Positions 4,137 to 63,316 of a stretch of DNA of 64,000 bases are shown one piece after another. The position numbers were made by a program, and so were the translations under genes. Below the pieces are notes generated by a model. That model saw nothing but the letters and a program-made list of their open reading frames with translations, made no database searches and was not told where the DNA came from. Numbering within the stretch: the first letter of the stretch is position 1; the number at the start of each line of letters is the position of its first letter. The DNA is from Escherichia coli. Lineage in GTDB: Bacteria; Pseudomonadota; Gammaproteobacteria; Enterobacterales; Enterobacteriaceae. Location: assembly GCF_045037415.1 (NCBI RefSeq), contig NZ_CP173438.1; one strand, given 5' to 3'.

Positions 4137-4318
4137 AGTTGTTTAAGTATTTTCTAAATTAAGTAAACTCTAAACTAAGTGTGCAACATATACCAGCATC
4201 AGCAGCGTAAATGAGAGTAAAAGCGTACGCTGAAACTGGCAGGCTCCGCTAAAATTACTACGCTTAAGAGATAAAATCTCTTTTTAAACAATGAGTAATT
4301 TTCTTATAGGGAGTACAT

Positions 4319-4477
4319 ATGGGTTTCTGGAGAATCGTCATCACCATCATTCTGCCGCCGCTCGGCGTGCTGCTCGGTAAAGGGTTCGGTTGGGCGTTCA
4401 TTATTAATATTCTGCTGACACTGCTTGGCTATATCCCCGGTTTGATTCACGCGTTCTGGGTGCAAACCCGCGATTAA
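4319..4477 (+). CDS. yqaE: YqaE, Pmp3/UPF0057-family small membrane protein (52 aa)
   Basis: Not in the ORF track because it is under 60 aa. ATG at 4319 follows a GGAG Shine-Dalgarno; translation MGFWRIVITIILPPLGVLLGKGFGWAFIINILLTLLGYIPGLIHAFWVQTRD; stop TAA at 4475-4477. Confidence 0.85.
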   Translation: MGFWRIVITIILPPLGVLLGKGFGWAFIINILLTLLGYIPGLIHAFWVQTRD

Positions 4478-4560
4478 ACCTGTGCTCACCCCCGCGGCGT
4501 TAACGCGCCGCGTTCCTCTGCTACACTTTCTGAGTGTTTCCGTTAACGAATGAGGTAGCT

Positions 4561-5010
4561 ATGGGTCTGTTCAATTTTGTGAAAGATGCCGGAGAAAAAC
4601 TCTGGGACGCGGTTACAGGTCAGCACGATAAAGACGATCAGGCGAAGAAGGTGCAGGAGCATCTGAACAAAACCGGTATACCTGATGCCGATAAAGTGAA
4701 CATTCAAATTGCCGACGGCAAAGCGACGGTCACTGGTGACGGCTTAAGTCAGGAGGCGAAGGAGAAAATCCTTGTTGCGGTGGGGAATATTTCCGGTATT
4801 GCCAGTGTCGATGATCAGGTGAAAACGGCGACACCAGCCACTGCCAGCCAGTTTTATACCGTTAAGTCTGGCGACACTCTGAGTGCCATTTCCAAACAGG
4901 TCTACGGTAACGCTAATCTGTACAATAAAATCTTCGAAGCGAATAAACCGATGCTAAAAAGCCCGGATAAAATTTACCCGGGGCAAGTGTTGCGTATTCC
5001 TGAAGAGTAG
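4561..5010 (+). CDS. ygaU: YgaU/Kbp, BON and LysM domain potassium-binding protein
   Basis: Translation from the internal ATG at 4561: [27 protein letters not shown]..., with a C-terminal LysM-like [18 protein letters not shown] segment. Confidence 0.9.
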
Positions 5011-5673
5011 TTAATTGCCAGCCATCGCCTGCTGGATAATGGGAATTGGCGTCAGTAAATGCTGGCGCATTAACTCACTGGCGCGCGCGGTATCTCGCGC
5101 CAGTACCGCCGCAGTCAGGGTCTGGTGCTGATCGTGTTTATCTTCCAGCATTTCCACCGAAAGCACTGTTCGCCGCAGCCAGATAAATCGATAACGCGCT
5201 GCCAGATCAAACAACCGTTCACGCATTTGCAGCAAATAGTAAGAACCACAGCCCGCCACAATTGCAGTATGAAACGCCTGATGACGCAGATCCCACTCAT
5301 CAAGCATTTTCTCACTGGCGTCACAGGCCTCAAGCTTACTGAGCAGATGCGCTTTTGCGAGAACGTCTGCCTCCCATTCATCGCCACCGCGGGCAATCGC
5401 CAGACTCACCAGCATCGCTTCCATATTGGCGCGGGCGTCGAAAATATCGAGCAGCTCCTGCTCTGACATAGACGCCACCCGATACCCTTTTTGATTCACC
5501 ACCGTGACCAGTCGTTCTGCCACCAGTTGCGAAAGTGCTTCCCGCAACGGCCCAACGCCAAGTGCATAACGCGATGTCAGCAAACTCATCCGTAATTTTT
5601 CATCCGGCTGAAAATTGCCGCGAATAATATCGTTCTTCAGCCAGCGATAGCCATCCAGAGAGGTAATGGTCAT
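5011..5673 (-). CDS. csiR: CsiR (GabC), GntR-family repressor of the csiD-gab operon
   Basis: ORF 5011..5691; start placed at MTITSLDGYRWLKNDIIRGNF... to give 220 aa. Confidence 0.9.
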   Translation of the reverse strand: MTITSLDGYRWLKNDIIRGNFQPDEKLRMSLLTSRYALGVGPLREALSQLVAERLVTVVNQKGYRVASMSEQELLDIFDARANMEAMLVSLAIARGGDEWEADVLAKAHLLSKLEACDASEKMLDEWDLRHQAFHTAIVAGCGSYYLLQMRERLFDLAARYRFIWLRRTVLSVEMLEDKHDQHQTLTAAVLARDTARASELMRQHLLTPIPIIQQAMAGN

Positions 5674-5693
5674 GGTGTGACTCCTGATCATTA

Positions 5694-7094
5694 TCAGCGC
5701 GTATTATGAATGGGTGTTTTTTGCCACATTATCAGCTTTTTCCAGCGAGCCATAATTGGCACGGTACAGATAATCCCAATCGCTAATAAGCCGGTGGAGA
5801 TCACTTCTAACTGTTGCGCCGGGCGGAATAGCATCACTACCAACACAAAGGTAATAAAGCCGATGACCAGCCAGGTGAGCCACGGATAAAGCCACATCCG
5901 CAGGCGAATTTCGCTTCCTTCTGCTCGCAGAATTTTGCGCATCCGCAATTGTGAAACGGCGATGACTAAATAAACCAGCAGGGCGATAGCGCCGGAGCTG
6001 TCGATCAGAAATTTAAACACCTTCGCAGGCGCGTAATAGTTCACCACCACCGTTAAGAATGCCGCGCTGGTGGAGAGTAACACCGCTACGTACGGGGTTT
6101 TACTGCGGTTGATTTTACCCATTACCGCGGGAGCATCACCGCGACGGCTTAAGGAGTAGAGCATCCTGGAAGCGGTATACAGCGCCGAGTTCAGGCAACT
6201 GGTTACGGAAAGTAATATCACGCAGTCCATGATTAATTTCGCATGAGGAATATTGAGCAATTCCAGAACCGAGCGATAAGAACCAACGGCTTTCAGCCCT
6301 GGCATATTCCACGGGATTAATGCAACAACGACAAAAATAGAACACAAATAGAAAATAGAGATACGCCAGATAACCGAGTTGGTGGCGCGAACAATATGTT
6401 TTTCCGGCGTGTCGGATTCCGCGGCGGCAATGGTGACAATTTCTGCGCCCATAAACGAGAACATGGTGATCAACATCGCGCTTAATACCGCACCGAAGCC
6501 GTTGGGCATAAAGCCGCCGCTATCCCACAATCTTGAAATCCCGCTCACGTCGGCATACGGGTAAAAACCGCTAATTGCGACGGCACCAAGGAAAATAAAG
6601 GCCAGGATAGCGATGACTTTACACAGCGCCAGCCAGAACTCAAATTCGCCGTAGTTTTTAACGCTTAATAAATTACTGCCGGTTAAGGCGAGGGTAATGA
6701 CGAGGGAAAATAACCAGATGGGAATGCCTGGAACCCATGAGTGCAGGATCATGGCGGCGATGTTGGCTTCAAGTGGGATAACCAGTACCCAAAACCACCA
6801 GTACAACCAGCCGATGGTATAGCCCGCCCAGCGGCCAATGGCTTTATCGGCATAGGTGGAAAACGAACCGGTATCGGGCGTGGCAACCGCCATTTCCGCC
6901 AACATCCGCATAATCATAACCACCAGTAATCCGGCGAACAGATAGGCCAGTAATACCGCCGGGCCCGCTTCGGCGATGGCGACGCTGGAACCGACAAACA
7001 GACTTGCGCCGATAACACCGGCAATAGACAACATGGTGACGTGGCGTGACTTCAGCCCGCCGCCTAACTCATGTGGTTGCGATGATTGCCCCAT
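5694..7094 (-). CDS. gabP: GabP, gamma-aminobutyrate permease (APC family)
   Basis: The track ORF is N-terminally extended; start placed at MGQSSQPHELGGGLKSRHVTMLSIAGVIGASLF... to give 466 aa. Confidence 0.95.
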   Translation of the reverse strand: MGQSSQPHELGGGLKSRHVTMLSIAGVIGASLFVGSSVAIAEAGPAVLLAYLFAGLLVVMIMRMLAEMAVATPDTGSFSTYADKAIGRWAGYTIGWLYWWFWVLVIPLEANIAAMILHSWVPGIPIWLFSLVITLALTGSNLLSVKNYGEFEFWLALCKVIAILAFIFLGAVAISGFYPYADVSGISRLWDSGGFMPNGFGAVLSAMLITMFSFMGAEIVTIAAAESDTPEKHIVRATNSVIWRISIFYLCSIFVVVALIPWNMPGLKAVGSYRSVLELLNIPHAKLIMDCVILLSVTSCLNSALYTASRMLYSLSRRGDAPAVMGKINRSKTPYVAVLLSTSAAFLTVVVNYYAPAKVFKFLIDSSGAIALLVYLVIAVSQLRMRKILRAEGSEIRLRMWLYPWLTWLVIGFITFVLVVMLFRPAQQLEVISTGLLAIGIICTVPIMARWKKLIMWQKTPIHNTR

Positions 7095-11383: not shown

Positions 11384-12560
<1,177 letters not shown>

Positions 12561-12879
12561 ATATTAAGTGTGCTTATACTCTTTTTCGAACTGGTGGCAT
12601 TTGTTTAAATGCTATTTAAACTGCTTTTTCAGAGTTCAACTTACTGAGTTCCGTGTCGACTAATGTGAGTAAGATCAATCGCATCCAACCTATGTTACTT
12701 GATGGCATCGATAACAATATTAATGAACATACAGATTCCGGGAAGGCTGGCTATGGGGGCAAATTATTCTCTTTCTGGAAACGGGTAAATAACAGTGACC
12801 ATTTGTCGAGAAGCTGATACTGAGCTGAGGGATACTGTATATGTCTGGACTGTAATTGGATGAATTCTATTCAGGGCGG

Positions 12880-12904
12880 GTCAGGACCAATAAAAAAGCC
12901 CGCA
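12880..12904 (-). terminator. Rho-independent terminator downstream of ssrA
   Basis: On the minus strand GCCCGC-UGAU-GCGGGC is followed by UUUUUUA; about 140 nt past the mature tmRNA 3' end. Confidence 0.55.
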
Positions 12905-13044
12905 TCAGCGGGCTTTAATGTCATAGGGAGTCGCGACTCCGTTGCGTATCCTTTTTTGTCTCCTCACCGTCTGGTCGGTGTCCTGCTGAGACTTATAACT
13001 TCCTGTTTTTGTTGGTGTAGTCCTTACACCGTCCAATCATTATT

Positions 13045-13407
13045 TGGTGGAGCTGGCGGGAGTTGAACCCGCGTCCGAAATTCCTACATCCTCGGTACTA
13101 CATGCTTAGTCAGTCTTTACATTCGCTTGCCAGCTGCGGACGGACACGCCACTAACAAACTAGCCTGATTAAGTTTTAACGCTTCAACCCCAGGCAGGGC
13201 TTCCACGCGATCTCTTTTGGGTTTGACCTCTCTTGATCCCCGTCCTAAGAGCGGAGGCTAGGGAGAGAGGGCTCTAAGCAGGTTATTAAGCTGCTAAAGC
13301 GTAGTTTTCGTCGTTTGCGACTATTTTTTGCGGCTTTTTACGAGGCCAACCGCCCCTCGGCATGCACCTTGGGTTTCGCAAATCCCGTCGAATCCAGAAT
13401 CAGCCCC
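13045..13407 (-). ncRNA. ssrA: tmRNA (SsrA, 10Sa RNA), 363 nt
   Basis: Minus strand reads GGGGCUGAUUCUGGAUUCGACGGG ... CUCCACCA with the tRNA-like acceptor/T-arm; internal tag reading frame GCAAACGACGAAAACTACGCTTTAGCAGCTTAA (ANDENYALAA-stop) lies near 13283-13315. Confidence 0.97.
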
Positions 13408-34581: not shown

Positions 34582-34643
34582 CCTAAAGAATCAAGACGAT
34601 CCGGTACGCGTGATTTTCTTTTCACATTAATCTGGTCAATAAC

Positions 34644-34672
34644 CTTGAATAATTGAGGGATGACCTCATTTA
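34644..34672 (+). promoter_or_regulatory. Sigma-32 heat-shock promoter of clpB
   Basis: CTTGAAT at 34644-34650 and ACCTCATTTA at 34663-34672 resemble the sigma-32 -35 and -10 elements, about 40 bp upstream of clpB. Confidence 0.6.
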
Positions 34673-34710
34673 ATCTCCAGTAGCAACTTTGATCCGTTAT
34701 GGGAGGAGTT

Positions 34711-37284
34711 ATGCGTCTGGATCGTCTTACTAATAAATTCCAGCTTGCTCTTGCCGATGCCCAATCACTTGCACTCGGGCACGACAACCAATTCATCGAA
34801 CCACTTCATTTAATGAGCGCCCTGCTGAATCAGGAAGGGGGTTCGGTTAGTCCTTTATTAACATCCGCTGGCATTAATGCTGGCCAGTTGCGCACAGATA
34901 TCAATCAGGCATTAAATCGTTTACCACAGGTTGAAGGTACTGGTGGTGATGTCCAGCCATCACAGGATCTGGTGCGCGTTCTTAATCTTTGCGACAAGCT
35001 GGCGCAAAAACGTGGTGATAACTTTATCTCGTCAGAACTGTTCGTTCTGGCGGCACTTGAGTCTCGCGGCACGCTGGCCGACATCCTGAAAGCAGCAGGG
35101 GCGACCACCGCCAACATTACTCAAGCGATTGAACAAATGCGTGGAGGTGAAAGCGTGAACGATCAAGGTGCTGAAGACCAACGTCAGGCTTTGAAAAAAT
35201 ATACCATCGACCTTACCGAACGAGCCGAACAAGGCAAACTCGATCCGGTGATTGGTCGTGATGAAGAAATTCGCCGTACCATTCAGGTGCTGCAACGTCG
35301 TACTAAAAATAACCCGGTATTGATTGGTGAACCCGGCGTCGGTAAAACTGCCATCGTTGAAGGTCTGGCGCAGCGTATTATCAACGGCGAAGTGCCCGAA
35401 GGGTTGAAAGGCCGCCGCGTACTGGCGCTGGATATGGGCGCGCTGGTGGCTGGGGCGAAATATCGCGGTGAGTTTGAAGAACGTTTAAAAGGCGTACTTA
35501 ACGATCTTGCTAAACAGGAAGGCAACGTCATCCTGTTTATCGACGAATTACATACCATGGTCGGCGCGGGTAAAGCCGATGGCGCAATGGACGCCGGAAA
35601 CATGCTGAAACCAGCGTTGGCGCGTGGTGAATTGCACTGCGTAGGTGCCACGACGCTTGACGAATATCGCCAGTACATCGAAAAAGATGCTGCGCTGGAA
35701 CGTCGTTTCCAGAAAGTGTTTGTTGCCGAGCCTTCTGTTGAAGATACCATTGCTATTCTGCGAGGCCTGAAAGAACGTTACGAGCTGCACCACCATGTGC
35801 AAATTACTGACCCGGCAATTGTTGCAGCAGCGACGTTGTCTCATCGCTACATTGCTGACCGTCAGCTGCCGGATAAAGCCATCGACCTGATCGATGAAGC
35901 AGCATCCAGCATTCGTATGCAGATTGACTCAAAACCAGAAGAACTCGACCGACTCGATCGCCGTATCATCCAGCTCAAACTGGAACAACAGGCGTTAATG
36001 AAAGAGTCTGATGAAGCCAGTAAAAAACGCCTGGATATGCTCAACGAAGAACTGAGCGACAAAGAACGTCAGTACTCCGAGTTAGAAGAAGAGTGGAAAG
36101 CAGAGAAAGCCTCGCTTTCTGGTACGCAGACCATTAAAGCGGAACTGGAACAGGCGAAAATTGCTATTGAACAGGCTCGCCGTGTGGGTGACCTGGCGCG
36201 GATGTCTGAACTGCAATACGGCAAAATCCCGGAACTGGAAAAGCAACTGGAAGCCGCAACGCAGCTCGAAGGCAAAACTATGCGTCTGTTGCGTAATAAA
36301 GTGACCGATGCCGAAATTGCTGAAGTGCTGGCGCGTTGGACGGGGATTCCGGTTTCTCGCATGATGGAAAGCGAGCGCGAAAAACTGCTGCGTATGGAGC
36401 AAGAACTGCACCATCGCGTTATTGGTCAGAACGAAGCGGTTGATGCGGTATCTAACGCTATTCGTCGTAGCCGTGCGGGGCTGGCGGATCCAAATCGCCC
36501 GATTGGTTCATTCCTGTTCCTCGGCCCAACCGGTGTGGGGAAAACTGAGCTTTGTAAGGCGCTAGCGAACTTTATGTTTGATAGCGACGAGGCGATGGTC
36601 CGTATCGATATGTCCGAGTTTATGGAGAAACACTCGGTGTCTCGTCTGGTTGGTGCGCCTCCGGGATATGTCGGTTATGAAGAAGGTGGCTACCTGACCG
36701 AAGCGGTGCGTCGTCGTCCGTATTCCGTCATTCTGCTGGATGAAGTGGAAAAAGCGCATCCGGATGTCTTCAACATTCTGTTGCAGGTACTGGATGATGG
36801 GCGTCTGACTGACGGGCAGGGGAGAACGGTCGACTTCCGTAATACGGTTGTCATTATGACCTCTAACCTCGGTTCCGATTTGATTCAGGAACGCTTCGGT
36901 GAACTGGATTATGCGCACATGAAAGAGCTGGTGCTCGGTGTGGTTAGCCATAACTTCCGTCCGGAATTCATTAACCGTATCGATGAAGTGGTGGTCTTCC
37001 ATCCGCTGGGTGAACAGCACATTGCGTCGATTGCGCAGATTCAGTTGAAACGTCTGTATAAACGTCTGGAAGAACGTGGTTATGAAATCCACATTTCTGA
37101 CGAGGCGCTGAAACTGCTGAGCGAGAACGGTTACGATCCGGTCTATGGCGCACGTCCTCTGAAACGTGCAATTCAGCAGCAGATTGAAAACCCGCTGGCA
37201 CAGCAAATACTGTCTGGTGAATTGGTTCCGGGTAAAGTGATTCGCCTGGAAGTTAATGAAGACCGGATTGTCGCCGTCCAGTAA
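34711..37284 (+). CDS. clpB: ClpB, AAA+ disaggregase chaperone (Hsp104 family)
   Basis: Start at [39 protein letters not shown]..., 857 aa, with two AAA+ modules (GEPGVGKT and GPTGVGKT Walker A motifs). Confidence 0.97.
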
Positions 37285-39430: not shown

Positions 39431-39623
39431 CTTGCTGGTTTGTGAGTGAAAGTCACCTGCCTTAATATCTCAAAACTCATCTTCGGGTGATGTTTGAGAT
39501 ATTTGCTCTTTAAAAATCTGGATCAAGCTGAAAATTGAAACACTGAACAACGAGAGTTGTTCGTGAGTCTCTCAAATTTTCGCAACACGATGATGAATCG
39601 CAAGAAACATCTTCGGGTTGTGA

Positions 39624-43070: not shown

Positions 43071-44369
43071 ATGGCTGAAAGTACTGTAACGGCAGACAGC
43101 AAACTGACAAGTAGTGATACTCGTCGCCGCATTTGGGCAATTGTTGGGGCCTCTTCAGGTAATCTGGTCGAGTGGTTCGATTTCTATGTCTACTCGTTCT
43201 GTTCACTCTACTTCGCCCACATCTTCTTCCCTTCCGGGAACACGACGACTCAACTACTGCAAACAGCAGGTGTTTTTGCTGCAGGATTTCTGATGCGCCC
43301 AATAGGCGGTTGGCTGTTTGGCCGCATAGCCGATAAACATGGTCGCAAAAAATCGATGCTGTTATCGGTGTGTATGATGTGTTTCGGCTCACTGGTTATC
43401 GCCTGTTTGCCAGGCTACGAAACAATCGGTACCTGGGCTCCGGCATTATTGCTTCTCGCGCGTTTATTCCAGGGATTATCCGTTGGCGGAGAATATGGCA
43501 CCAGCGCCACCTATATGAGTGAAGTTGCCGTTGAAGGGCGCAAAGGTTTTTACGCATCATTTCAGTATGTGACGTTGATCGGCGGGCAACTGCTAGCTCT
43601 ACTGGTTGTCGTGGTTTTACAACACACCATGGAAGACGCTGTACTCAGAGAGTGGGGATGGCGTATTCCTTTCGCGTTAGGAGCTGTGTTAGCTGTTGTG
43701 GCGTTGCGGTTACGTCGTCAGTTAGATGAAACTTCACAACAAGAAACACGCGCTTTAAAAGAAGCTGGATCTCTGAAAGGATTATGGCGCAATCGCCGTG
43801 CATTCATCATGGTTCTCGGTTTTACCGCTGCGGGCTCCCTTTGTTTCTATACCTTCACCACTTATATGCAGAAGTATCTGGTAAATACTGCGGGAATGCA
43901 TGCCAACGTGGCGAGTGGCATTATGACTGCCGCATTGTTTGTATTCATGCTTATTCAACCAATTATTGGCGCGCTGTCGGATAAGATTGGTCGCCGTACC
44001 TCAATGTTATGTTTCGGTTCTCTGGCAACCATTTTTACCGTTCCTATTCTCTCAGCATTGCAGAACGTTTCCTCGCCTTATGCCGCTTTTGGTCTGGTGA
44101 TGTGCGCCCTGCTGATAGTGAGTTTTTATACTTCAATCAGTGGAATACTGAAGGCTGAGATGTTCCCGGCACAGGTTCGCGCATTAGGCGTTGGTCTGTC
44201 ATATGCGTTCGCCAATGCTATATTTGGTGGGTCGGCGGAGTACGTAGCGTTGTCGCTGAAATCAATAGGAATGGAAACAGCCTTCTTCTGGTATGTGACC
44301 TTGATGGCCGTGGTGGCGTTTCTGGTTTCACTAACATTGCACCGTAAAGGAAAAGGGATGCGGCTTTAG
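43071..44369 (+). CDS. kgtP: KgtP, alpha-ketoglutarate:proton symporter (MFS)
   Basis: Start at [41 protein letters not shown]..., preceded by an AGGAG Shine-Dalgarno; 432 aa. Confidence 0.95.
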
Positions 44370-55876: not shown

Positions 55877-58230
<2,354 letters not shown>

Positions 58231-59887: not shown

Positions 59888-60843
59888 TGAAGCAACTTTG
59901 GTTTGCCATGTCATTAGTGACAGGTAGCCTGTTATTCTCTGCTAACGCCTTGGCCACTCCCGCGTCCGGGGCGTTATTACAGCAGATGAACCTGGCCAGT
60001 CAGTCACTGAATTACGAGCTGTCATTTATCAGCATCAATAAACAGGGTGTTGAGTCTCTGCGTTATCGACATGCACGCCTCGATAACCGTCCTCTTGCAC
60101 AATTGTTGCAAATGGATGGCCCGCGCCGGGAAGTGGTACAGCGCGGCAATGAAATCAGCTATTTTGAACCGGGACTTGAACCGTTCACGCTTAATGGCGA
60201 TTACATTGTTGATTCTCTGCCATCGCTCATCTATACCGATTTCAAACGCCTTTCTCCTTACTACGACTTTATCTCTGTCGGGCGCACGCGTATTGCTGAT
60301 CGTCTTTGCGAAGTCATTCGTGTGGTTGCCCGAGATGGTACACGCTACAGCTACATCGTGTGGATGGACACCGAATCGAAATTACCGATGCGGGTTGATC
60401 TCCTTGATCGCGATGGTGAAACGCTGGAACAATTTCGCGTGATTGCTTTTAACGTCAATCAGGATATCGGCAGCAGTATGCAGACGCTGGCGAAGGCAAA
60501 TTTGCCGCCGTTGCTTTCTGTTCCTGTTGGTGAAAAAGCTAAATTCAGCTGGACGCCAACCTGGCTGCCACAGGGTTTTAGCGAAGTTTCCAGTAGTCGA
60601 CGTCCGCTACCGACGATGGACAACATGCCTATCGAATCACGTCTCTATTCCGACGGATTATTCAGCTTCTCGGTAAACGTTAACCGCGCTACGCCATCGA
60701 GCACCGATCAGATGTTGCGCACCGGACGCAGAACCGTCAGTACAAGCGTACGTGATAACGCCGAAATCACCATTGTTGGTGAACTGCCGCCGCAAACGGC
60801 GAAACGCATTGCCGAGAATATTAAGTTCGGGACAGCGCAATGA
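59887..60843 (+). CDS. rseB: RseB, periplasmic regulator of sigma-E
   Basis: 318-aa ORF MKQLWFAMSLVTGSLLFSANALATPASGALLQQMNLA... with a signal peptide. Confidence 0.95.
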   Translation: MKQLWFAMSLVTGSLLFSANALATPASGALLQQMNLASQSLNYELSFISINKQGVESLRYRHARLDNRPLAQLLQMDGPRREVVQRGNEISYFEPGLEPFTLNGDYIVDSLPSLIYTDFKRLSPYYDFISVGRTRIADRLCEVIRVVARDGTRYSYIVWMDTESKLPMRVDLLDRDGETLEQFRVIAFNVNQDIGSSMQTLAKANLPPLLSVPVGEKAKFSWTPTWLPQGFSEVSSSRRPLPTMDNMPIESRLYSDGLFSFSVNVNRATPSSTDQMLRTGRRTVSTSVRDNAEITIVGELPPQTAKRIAENIKFGTAQ

Positions 60844-61319
60844 TCAAAGAGTGGGCTACCGTCGTCTCCTGGGAAAACGGGCAGGCGCTGGTCAGTTGTG
60901 ATGTTAAAGCCTCATGCAGCAGCTGCGCTTCACGCGCCGGTTGCGGTAGCCGTGTGTTGAATAAACTTGGCCCGCAAACCACGCATACCATTGTCGTACC
61001 CTGTGATGAGCCGCTAGTGCCGGGGCAAAAAGTGGAATTGGGGATCGCCGAAGGCAGCCTTCTTAGCTCCGCATTACTGGTTTATATGTCGCCGCTGGTG
61101 GGATTATTCCTCATCGCTTCGCTATTTCAGCTACTCTTTGCTTCTGACGTCGCAGCATTATGTGGTGCGATCCTCGGCGGTATTGGTGGGTTCCTGATTG
61201 CGCGCGGCTATTCGCGTAAGTTTGCTGCCCGGGCAGAATGGCAACCGATCATCTTAAGCGTGGCATTGCCGCCTGGCCTTGTGCGATTTGAAACATCTTC
61301 GGAAGACGCGAGCCAGTGA
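60840..61319 (+). CDS. rseC: RseC, membrane protein of the rpoE operon
   Basis: 159-aa ORF MIKEWATVVSWENGQALVSCDVKASCSSCASRAGCGSRVL...; its start overlaps the rseB stop by 4 nt. Confidence 0.9.
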   Translation: MIKEWATVVSWENGQALVSCDVKASCSSCASRAGCGSRVLNKLGPQTTHTIVVPCDEPLVPGQKVELGIAEGSLLSSALLVYMSPLVGLFLIASLFQLLFASDVAALCGAILGGIGGFLIARGYSRKFAARAEWQPIILSVALPPGLVRFETSSEDASQ

Positions 61320-61516
61320 TTTCACTGGCTTTGTTGCATTTTGCATAACAAATGCGAGGACGTTTCCATATACCACAATCCATACGGTATGAACATTTCC
61401 TCGCCTCAATGTTGTAGTGTAGAATGCGGCGTTTCTATTAATACAGACGTTAAGCTCAGAACAGCGACTTCTAAAAGCCTGGTTAACCGGGCATTAAGGC
61501 ACAATAATCATACTTT

Positions 61517-63316
61517 ATGAAGAATATACGTAACTTTTCGATCATAGCTCACATTGACCACGGTAAATCGACGCTGTCTGACCGTATTATCCAGATCTGC
61601 GGTGGCCTGTCTGACCGTGAAATGGAGGCGCAGGTTCTCGATTCCATGGATCTTGAGCGTGAGCGTGGCATTACCATCAAAGCGCAAAGCGTGACGCTGG
61701 ACTACAAAGCGTCTGACGGCGAAACCTATCAGCTTAACTTTATCGACACCCCGGGCCACGTAGACTTCTCCTATGAAGTTTCTCGTTCGCTGGCTGCCTG
61801 TGAAGGTGCATTGCTGGTGGTCGACGCCGGGCAGGGCGTAGAAGCGCAAACCCTGGCAAACTGCTACACCGCCATGGAAATGGATCTCGAAGTGGTGCCG
61901 GTACTGAACAAGATTGACCTGCCGGCAGCCGATCCTGAACGCGTGGCGGAAGAAATTGAAGATATCGTCGGCATCGACGCCACCGACGCGGTGCGCTGTT
62001 CAGCGAAAACCGGCGTTGGCGTGCAAGACGTTCTCGAACGCTTGGTGCGCGACATTCCGCCGCCGGAAGGCGATCCGGAAGGCCCATTGCAGGCGCTGAT
62101 TATCGACTCCTGGTTCGACAACTACCTGGGCGTTGTTTCACTTATCCGTATTAAAAACGGCACCCTGCGTAAGGGCGACAAAGTGAAAGTCATGAGCACC
62201 GAGCAGACCTATAACGCCGATCGTCTGGGCATCTTCACGCCGAAGCAGATTGACCGCACTGAACTGAAATGTGGCGAAGTAGGCTGGCTGGTATGTGCGA
62301 TTAAAGATATCCACGGCGCTCCAGTAGGCGATACCTTAACACTGGCGCGTAATCCGGCAGAAAAGGCGCTGCCTGGCTTTAAGAAAGTCAAACCTCAGGT
62401 ATATGCTGGTCTGTTCCCGGTAAGTTCCGACGACTATGAAGCCTTCCGTGACGCGCTGGGTAAACTCAGCCTGAACGATGCCTCACTGTTCTATGAGCCG
62501 GAAAGCTCCAGCGCGTTGGGCTTTGGTTTCCGCTGCGGCTTCCTTGGCCTGCTGCACATGGAGATCATCCAGGAACGTCTGGAACGTGAATACGATCTGG
62601 ATCTGATCACCACTGCGCCGACTGTAGTGTATGAAGTTGAAACCACGTCAAGAGAAGTTATCTACGTCGACAGCCCATCCAAGCTGCCAGCGGTAAATAA
62701 CATTTACGAACTGCGCGAGCCGATTGCAGAGTGTCACATGCTGCTGCCGCAGGCATATCTCGGCAACGTTATTACGCTGTGCGTAGAAAAACGCGGCGTG
62801 CAGACCAATATGGTTTACCACGGTAATCAGGTGGCGCTGACGTACGAGATCCCGATGGCGGAAGTGGTGCTCGACTTCTTCGATCGCCTGAAATCTACCT
62901 CGCGTGGTTATGCGTCTCTGGATTACAACTTCAAACGCTTCCAGGCGTCCGACATGGTACGTGTAGACGTATTAATCAACGGTGAACGTGTTGATGCATT
63001 GGCGCTGATCACCCACCGTGGTAATTCGCAAAACCGCGGTCGCGAGCTGGTGGAGAAGATGAAAGATCTGATCCCACGCCAGCAGTTTGATATCGCCATT
63101 CAGGCAGCGATTGGTACGCACATCATTGCGCGCTCCACCGTGAAACAGCTGCGTAAAAACGTACTGGCTAAATGTTATGGCGGCGATATCAGCCGTAAGA
63201 AAAAGCTGCTGCAGAAGCAGAAAGAAGGTAAGAAACGCATGAAGCAGATCGGTAACGTCGAGCTGCCGCAGGAAGCGTTCCTCGCCATTCTGCACGTCGG
63301 CAAAGACAACAAATAA
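61517..63316 (+). CDS. lepA: LepA (EF4), translational GTPase
   Basis: 599-aa [60 protein letters not shown]... with GTPase motifs. Confidence 0.97.

Follow-up and report, generated by a model that had tools for sequence, protein, structure and literature searches.

The convergent genes kbp and csiR of Escherichia coli abut stop codon to stop codon and end their transcripts inside each other

In the E. coli DNA analysed here, a stretch of 64,000 nt hereafter referred to as the window, the convergent genes kbp (ygaU) and csiR (glaR, ygaE) meet at their stop codons with no base between them. Very likely they represent an ordinary convergent pair in which compaction has brought the coding regions so close that the stops touch. 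Since there is no intergenic DNA, the kbp and csiR transcripts each end within the opposing gene, as the earlier note had anticipated for any terminator at this place. The 3'-end mapping that it proposed as a check has in fact been published: the Term-seq ends of strain MG1655 correspond to window positions 4956, inside kbp, and 5107, inside csiR (PMC7815308). The feature is already on record: it appears in genome annotation and in 3'-end maps, in a catalogue of dsRNAs and in a list of excludons. What the locus offers is a clean and well-documented case of ending two converging transcripts without intergenic DNA, on one side by an intrinsic terminator written in the codons of the neighbor, and on the other most likely by Rho together with a protective hairpin. 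The positions of all features are collected in Table 1.

Table 1. Features at and around the kbp-csiR junction (window positions).
Feature	Position	Strand	Evidence and remarks
kbp (ygaU) CDS	4561..5010	+	149 aa, stop TAG 5008-5010; sequence, ORF list, RefSeq annotation
csiR-side intrinsic terminator within kbp CDS	4956..4982	-	Terminator scan, folds, Term-seq
dsRNA cluster 217, p19-captured, RNase III-derived	~4978..5261		'csiR ygaU', type 3', Convergent; PMC7373196 Table S1e
5' end listed as antisense TSS	5007..5007	+	RNA starts GUAGUUAAUUGCC; 3 nt before kbp end; PMC7373196 Table S1e
Stop-to-stop junction, TAG followed by TTA	5008..5013		Zero intergenic bases; direct reading
csiR (glaR, ygaE) CDS	5011..5673	-	220 aa, stop TAA (TTA on + at 5011-5013); sequence, ORF list, RefSeq
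kbp-side 3' end and GC-rich hairpin within csiR CDS	5078..5107	+	Term-seq, fold
kbp read-through zone antisense to csiR	5108..5536	+	C-rich, G-poor; ends ~5536 at Rho region

Structure of the junction and its place among convergent gene pairs

Read directly from the window, the last codons of kbp, CCT GAA GAG TAG, are followed immediately by TTA ATT GCC AGC CAT, the complement of the csiR end. The ORF list ends the + strand frame at 5010 and the - strand frame at 5011. In strain 20AR0734, which is nearly identical to the window (17 mismatches over 64,000 positions), RefSeq places kbp at 4561-5010 (+) and csiR at 5011-5673 (-), likewise with the spacer absent, and the same abutment is annotated in a K-12-like strain. 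The gene names, the two stop codons and the 0-bp distance that the earlier note had given are therefore borne out. The spacing is exactly 0, as no base is shared between the two coding sequences on direct reading. The csiR gene follows gabP at a distance of 20 nt, has the same orientation and is the last gene of the gab row.

We found 12 annotated convergent pairs in the window, with spacings of 36, 46, 0, 61, 53, 76, 42, -4, 47, 55, 32 and -16 nt, so that three of the 12 are spaced by zero or less (0, -4, -16). For E. coli, 75 convergent overlapping pairs have been counted among 663 overlapping adjacent pairs and were ascribed to stop-codon movement (PMC4161906). Measured against this baseline, i.e., the 12 pairs of the window and one published count, the zero spacing of kbp and csiR is no statistical anomaly but an ordinary arrangement. 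All three window pairs with a spacing of zero or less are already catalogued, as glaR-kbp, yfiM-kgtP and nadB-yfiC all appear among the 165 convergent excludons reported for MG1655 (ExcludonFinder, 2025; PMC12288877).

The 4-nt overlap of kgtP and yfiM, to which the earlier note had also drawn attention, is present as described: kgtP ends at 44369 and yfiM at 44366, and the shared bases are TTAG (44366-44369). This pair behaves like kbp-csiR in having a 3' end inside the neighbor. Two Term-seq ends of the kgtP strand, both labelled 'antisense yfiM', are listed at 2724397 (128,177 reads, LB 2.0) and 2724366 (228,703 reads, LB 0.4); by our count, they correspond to ~44420 and ~44451, 51 and 82 nt inside yfiM. 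The former lies just past the hairpin GCCGGTGCTTGCACCGGC. The remaining pair, trmN (yfiC, +, end 56614) and nadB (-, end 56599), overlaps convergently by 16 nt (56599-56614) and was absent from the earlier note.

An intrinsic terminator for csiR within the kbp coding sequence

On the csiR side, the consensus terminator scan detected on the - strand a hairpin which in DNA letters reads CCCGGGTAA-ATT-TTATCCGGG (4982..4962), followed by CTTTTT. In the RNA this corresponds to CCCGGGUAA-AUU-UUAUCCGGG, followed by C and UUUUU (4960..4956), i.e., a stem of 9 bp with 5 GC pairs and a 3-nt loop, then CUUUUU. The hairpin is present in both the MFE and the centroid folds. The Term-seq data of MG1655 contain a 3' end at 2796391(+), labelled 'antisense ygaU' and represented by 1,697 reads at LB OD 2.0 (PMC7815308 supplementary file 1), which corresponds to window position 4956. 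This position is the final U in the U5 tract and lies inside kbp, 55 nt downstream of the csiR stop. The sequence column of this data set gives 50 nt upstream, the 3' end itself and 10 nt downstream, as verified on the sgrS row. All transcript data used here come from K-12 MG1655, from which the window strain differs by 2 mismatches in the 61-nt region of the csiR side. With a GC-containing hairpin, a U tract and an RNA 3' end in that tract, the site has the properties of an intrinsic terminator, and the csiR mRNA thereby carries a 3' UTR of 55 nt that is antisense to the last 18 kbp codons.

The stem arises from the codons for SPDKIYPG (CCGGAT...ATCCGG), and the hairpin is found also in kbp homologues of many genera in which csiR does not lie downstream. 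The T-run, in turn, is formed by L-K-S codons and tracks phylogeny, being common to close relatives with or without an adjacent csiR. For the most part, the hairpin is a by-product of this coding palindrome, and, given its presence in homologues without csiR, selection for termination is here inseparable from coding constraint and phylogeny. Nor is the element a bidirectional terminator, as the hairpin at 4962-4982 is flanked by a T-run on the - strand only and is located inside kbp, before the stop.

The 3' end of kbp transcripts within csiR

On the kbp side, the Term-seq 3' end is located at 2796240(-), is labelled 'antisense csiR' and reaches 23,751 reads at LB OD 0.4 and 614,566 at LB OD 2.0; the coordinate is listed three times in the three-sheet file (PMC7815308). 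It corresponds to window position 5107, inside csiR, 97 nt past the kbp stop and 4 nt after the hairpin CUGGCGCG-N10-CGCGCCAG (5078-5103), which folds with -16.7 kcal/mol into a GC stem of 8-9 bp. The RNA after the hairpin is UACCGCC, with the 3' end at UACC, and a U tract is absent. The terminator scan, which covered the + strand from 4200 to 6000, found no hairpin with U tract on this side. The possibility that kbp is followed by a canonical + strand terminator was rejected, as the window has none, the Escherichia and Citrobacter loci with an adjacent csiR have none either, and S. arizonae gave a single weak hit.

Further into csiR, the MG1655 data place a bicyclomycin-sensitive Rho region at 2795811(-), with a score of 6.6 and a significance of 1.3e-18 (PMC7815308 supplementary file 2). 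From upstream to downstream of this position the reads go from 113 to 23 without bicyclomycin and from 272 to 367 with it (PMC7815308). The position corresponds to ~5536 in the window, about 430 nt past 5107, and marks no more than the point of highest significance in a range of +/-800 nt. The + strand has a C/G ratio of 1.36 across 5011-5673, with a maximum of 2.0 at the Rho region (5461-5560). Hence, the kbp side shows the features of Rho-dependent termination, namely read-through raised by bicyclomycin and a C-rich, G-poor untranslated RNA, the tie to the 5107 end being drawn from the coordinates.

We propose the following sequence of events. The csiR mRNA ends at the 9-bp hairpin and U5 tract written in kbp codons. 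Polymerase leaving kbp would enter csiR, which it transcribes as untranslated antisense RNA, and Rho would end this read-through several hundred nucleotides downstream, at ~5536. The kbp RNA would then be trimmed by 3'-to-5' exonucleases back to the hairpin at 5078-5103; for both of these last steps we rely on the coordinates. The overlapping mature 3' ends are complementary over 152 nt, and it is from this overlap that RNase III-type dsRNA fragments have been captured.

The end at 5107 might instead arise by direct termination at the GC hairpin, which would then act as a non-canonical intrinsic terminator without U tract, and not by Rho and trimming. Its position 4 nt past a stable stem of 8-9 GC-rich pairs (-16.7 kcal/mol) speaks for this, as does the dominance of the 5107 end in every growth condition listing it. 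Yet, the tail UACCGCC provides no U tract, the dsRNA cluster (to ~5261) and the Rho region (~5536) reveal transcripts well past 5107, and, according to PMC7815308, 3'-to-5' exonucleases typically shorten RNAs whose transcription Rho has ended. We thus regard direct termination as unlikely and retain Rho-dependent termination followed by trimming as the explanation of the kbp end.

In an alignment of 15 distinct sequences from 3 genera, 97.5% of cells preserve the pairing of the kbp-side stem. Five of the eight pairs are invariant, and both arms encode conserved CsiR residues (LAR...ARAS). The conservation of the stem is mostly a matter of invariance. The covariation analysis yielded one compensatory pair, in which C. 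braakii has A-U in place of G-C, along with two G-U changes; this does not exceed the shuffles (137/500). The C. braakii case (L010 3534-3576, homologous to 5070-5112) is a double synonymous change in csiR, G to A and C to T, which keeps the pairing. In two other Citrobacter sequences, the pair is kept as G-U, formed on the kbp-sense strand only, the sample being too small for significance.

Overlapping 3' ends and double-stranded RNA

With one 3' end at 4956 (-) and the other at 5107 (+), the two ends lie 151 nt apart and the mature transcripts are complementary over 152 nt (4956-5107). Zero or negative spacing of convergent genes in general predicts such an obligatory antisense overlap at the 3' ends. 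At this locus, double-stranded RNA has been recovered: cluster 217 belongs to a stationary-phase dataset, in which it reaches about 150, 99 and 140 RPM in three libraries (PMC7373196). The coordinates of that table refer to an older genome version, and the window positions in Table 1 are approximate to within 3 nt, since the offset of +1978 was inferred from the 5'-end sequence of the same row. The pair also has two properties of an excludon, as the genes are placed on opposite strands tail to tail and the 3' ends lie inside the transcription unit of the neighbor. Whole-fragment RNA folding around the junction is unremarkable, with z-scores of -1.05 and -0.59.

As for the origin of kbp transcripts, yqaE has a mapped 3' end of its own at MG1655 2796831, i.e., window position 4516, after the hairpin CGCGGCGTTAACGCGCCGCG (region 4478-4516). 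This end follows the yqaE stop by 39 nt and precedes the kbp start by 45 nt. The cluster 217 row, in turn, assigns the unit covering kbp a promoter coordinate of 2795106 (old version, ~4263 in the window), upstream of yqaE. Given a yqaE 3' end before kbp and a promoter upstream of yqaE, the origin of kbp transcription is described in more than one way.

Is the overlap regulatory?

The overlap could be more than a consequence of crowding, namely a selected regulatory device, i.e., a true excludon, in which kbp, induced far more strongly than csiR once cells are in stationary phase, would lower csiR expression by its read-through. The route would be polymerase collision along with RNase III cleavage of a duplex of 152 nt or longer, and the effect a tuning of the CsiR repressor and hence of the glaH-lhgO-gabDTP operon. 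Several observations agree with such a device. The kbp-sense end exceeds the csiR-sense end about 360-fold in reads at LB OD 2.0 (614,566 vs 1,697; PMC7815308), the dsRNA cluster was captured in a stationary-phase dataset (PMC7373196), and the pair stands on the convergent excludon list (PMC12288877). Moreover, the tail-to-tail order with a spacing of 0-12 nt is kept in three genera. These genera are, however, closely related, and the exact spacing varies among 0, 3, 6 and 12 nt. [quoted passage not shown] On balance, a selected excludon seems improbable.

A more specific version places the regulator in the abundant stationary-phase kbp transcript itself, which with its 97-nt 3' UTR and read-through would act in cis as an antisense RNA lowering CsiR (GlaR) synthesis, and would couple the induction of kbp to de-repression of glaH-lhgO-gabDTP; a stable 3' fragment of ~100 nt (5007-5107) could be the active form. 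This we hold to be quite doubtful, and a regulatory effect of the antisense overlap on CsiR is overall unlikely. If it were true, induction of kbp would de-repress glaH-lhgO-gabDTP, the glutarate/GABA catabolic operon. The arrangement as such matters little beyond bookkeeping, and it would gain interest only through a demonstrated regulatory connection of kbp to the CsiR regulon.

It is very improbable that part of the 5107 signal comes from a separate antisense RNA of ~101 nt (5007-5107), transcribed from a promoter in the 3' end of kbp. The cluster 217 row indeed gives the 5' end at 5007 as an antisense TSS, with values of 11 and 3, which we take as read counts (PMC7373196). Yet, these counts are very low, our scan detected no consensus-like promoter match upstream of 5007, no Rfam family was matched at the junction, and RNase cleavage of the kbp mRNA or of the duplex could just as well have produced the 5007 end.

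Conservation of the junction and evolution of its spacing

The earlier note had proposed to check the junction in other strains, and the junction proves to be conserved. A stretch of 32 bases spanning both stops (5002-5033) is matched exactly over at least 30 bases in 5148 of 5426 complete E. coli genomes, and the 50-nt junction is found at 95-100% identity in 5400 of the 5426, with no more than one mismatch among the matches listed. In E. coli Res13-Lact-PEB14-36 (H57, NZ_CP062863.1 ~1130379-1130408), the match covers 30 of the 32 and 46 of the 50 bases and then ends, with kbp the sole gene annotated beneath it; this suggests that csiR is disrupted or replaced there just past its own 3' end. 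The record E. coli SCPM-O-B-8794 (L003, 3440-3460), which serves as a separate species representative, carries a 3-nt spacer, CGG, and its CsiR ends in ...AMAG* with a TGA stop, compared to ...AMAGN* with TAA. Judging by these tails, the stop has shifted by one codon among sequences labelled E. coli.

To place the junction in a wider context, one genome per species was scanned with Kbp as the query and the loci were analysed by script. In this per-species scan, csiR follows kbp tail to tail only in Escherichia, Salmonella and Citrobacter. The spacing amounts to 0, 0, 3 and 6 nt in Escherichia, to 6 nt in Salmonella and to 6 or 12 nt in Citrobacter. The remaining 60-odd loci (Serratia, Pantoea, Enterobacter and others) have other neighbors beside kbp, and in many loci without csiR, e.g., those of Serratia, a canonical hairpin and T-run follow the kbp stop at 10-30 nt.

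Alignment revealed that Escherichia is without 24 nt which Salmonella and Citrobacter carry at the junction. These 24 nt comprise the spacer and the codons of 4-6 additional CsiR residues of poor conservation (KMKPGAA, KLLAEKS, KLLTE). Among the Escherichia sequences the length of the DNA does not vary, and the spacings of 0, 3 and 6 nt result from substitutions that move the stops, as reflected in the protein tails (AMAGN*, AMAG* or AMAD* for CsiR; ...IPEE* or ...IPE* for Kbp). Since the spacing is kept at 0-12 nt but varies within that range, it is the tightness that is conserved and not the exact zero. The tight junction (0-12 nt) is a common property of the three genera, with the exact zero specific to Escherichia. 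Based on the absence of the 24 nt and on the generation of the 0, 3 and 6 nt spacings in Escherichia by stop substitutions alone, the exact zero is most simply explained as a neutral end-point reached by compaction of the junction, as opposed to a designed feature.

The earlier note had named a C-terminal extension in orthologues as a possible sign of a misassigned stop. Longer CsiR proteins do exist in Salmonella and Citrobacter, by 4-6 residues, whereas misassignment does not follow, because the 24 nt that would encode the longer tail are absent from Escherichia DNA and the E. coli csiR stop is thus genuine. Likewise, residues 1-149 of the Kbp ORF are identical to the solved Kbp chain 7pvc_A (PDB), so that the kbp stop is not misassigned either. 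With both stops being in-frame ends of long ORFs in the ORF list and in RefSeq, and with the junction identical in ~95% of complete E. coli genomes, the reading of the abutment as an annotation artefact is effectively refuted and may be set aside.

Other features of the window

The kbp-sense and kgtP-sense Term-seq ends are separated by 71,843 nt in MG1655 (2796240 and 2724397) as compared to 39,313 nt in the window, from which it follows that the window strain is without ~32.5 kb present in K-12 between those ends. We take the absent segment to be the CP4-57 prophage with its adjacent islands, located beside ssrA. In the window, ssrA is located at 13045-13407, separated from glaH (csiD) by 683 nt (gap 12362-13044).

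At the Rfam gathering score, the window contains matches to AsrC, the antisense RNA of rseC (60804-61635, -, 501.6 bits), to RyfD/Ysr155 upstream of clpB (34592-34730, +) and to StyR-44 in the 16S-23S spacer (39508-39616, +). AsrC represents another annotated antisense transcript within the window.

Comparison with known systems

The kbp end resembles those produced by Rho termination and trimming to a stem-loop (PMC7815308). Common to both are an untranslated RNA rich in C and poor in G after the stop, a region sensitive to bicyclomycin, and a stable 3' end that directly follows a GC hairpin without U tract. In comparison to those systems, the link between the ~5536 region and the 5107 end is one that we infer from coordinates.

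With bidirectional intrinsic terminators the locus has in common that two converging transcripts are ended in a very small space. It differs from them in using two sites ~150 nt apart, each in the other gene; moreover, the hairpin at 4962-4982 has its U tract on the - strand only, and the kbp-side end is without one.

Short convergent overlaps, such as that of kgtP and yfiM (TTAG), are similar to kbp-csiR in that they reflect genome compaction through stop-codon movement. Yet, the genes in such overlaps share bases of their stop codons, whereas kbp and csiR abut and share none.

The locus also resembles the convergent excludons (PMC12288877), which likewise combine tail-to-tail genes, ends inside the unit of the neighbor and a dsRNA signal. 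Excludons are defined by mutually exclusive expression, while kbp-csiR is known as one from transcript overlap. The distance between the two genes is 0, compared to a mean of 95 nt reported for E. coli excludons (PMC12288877).
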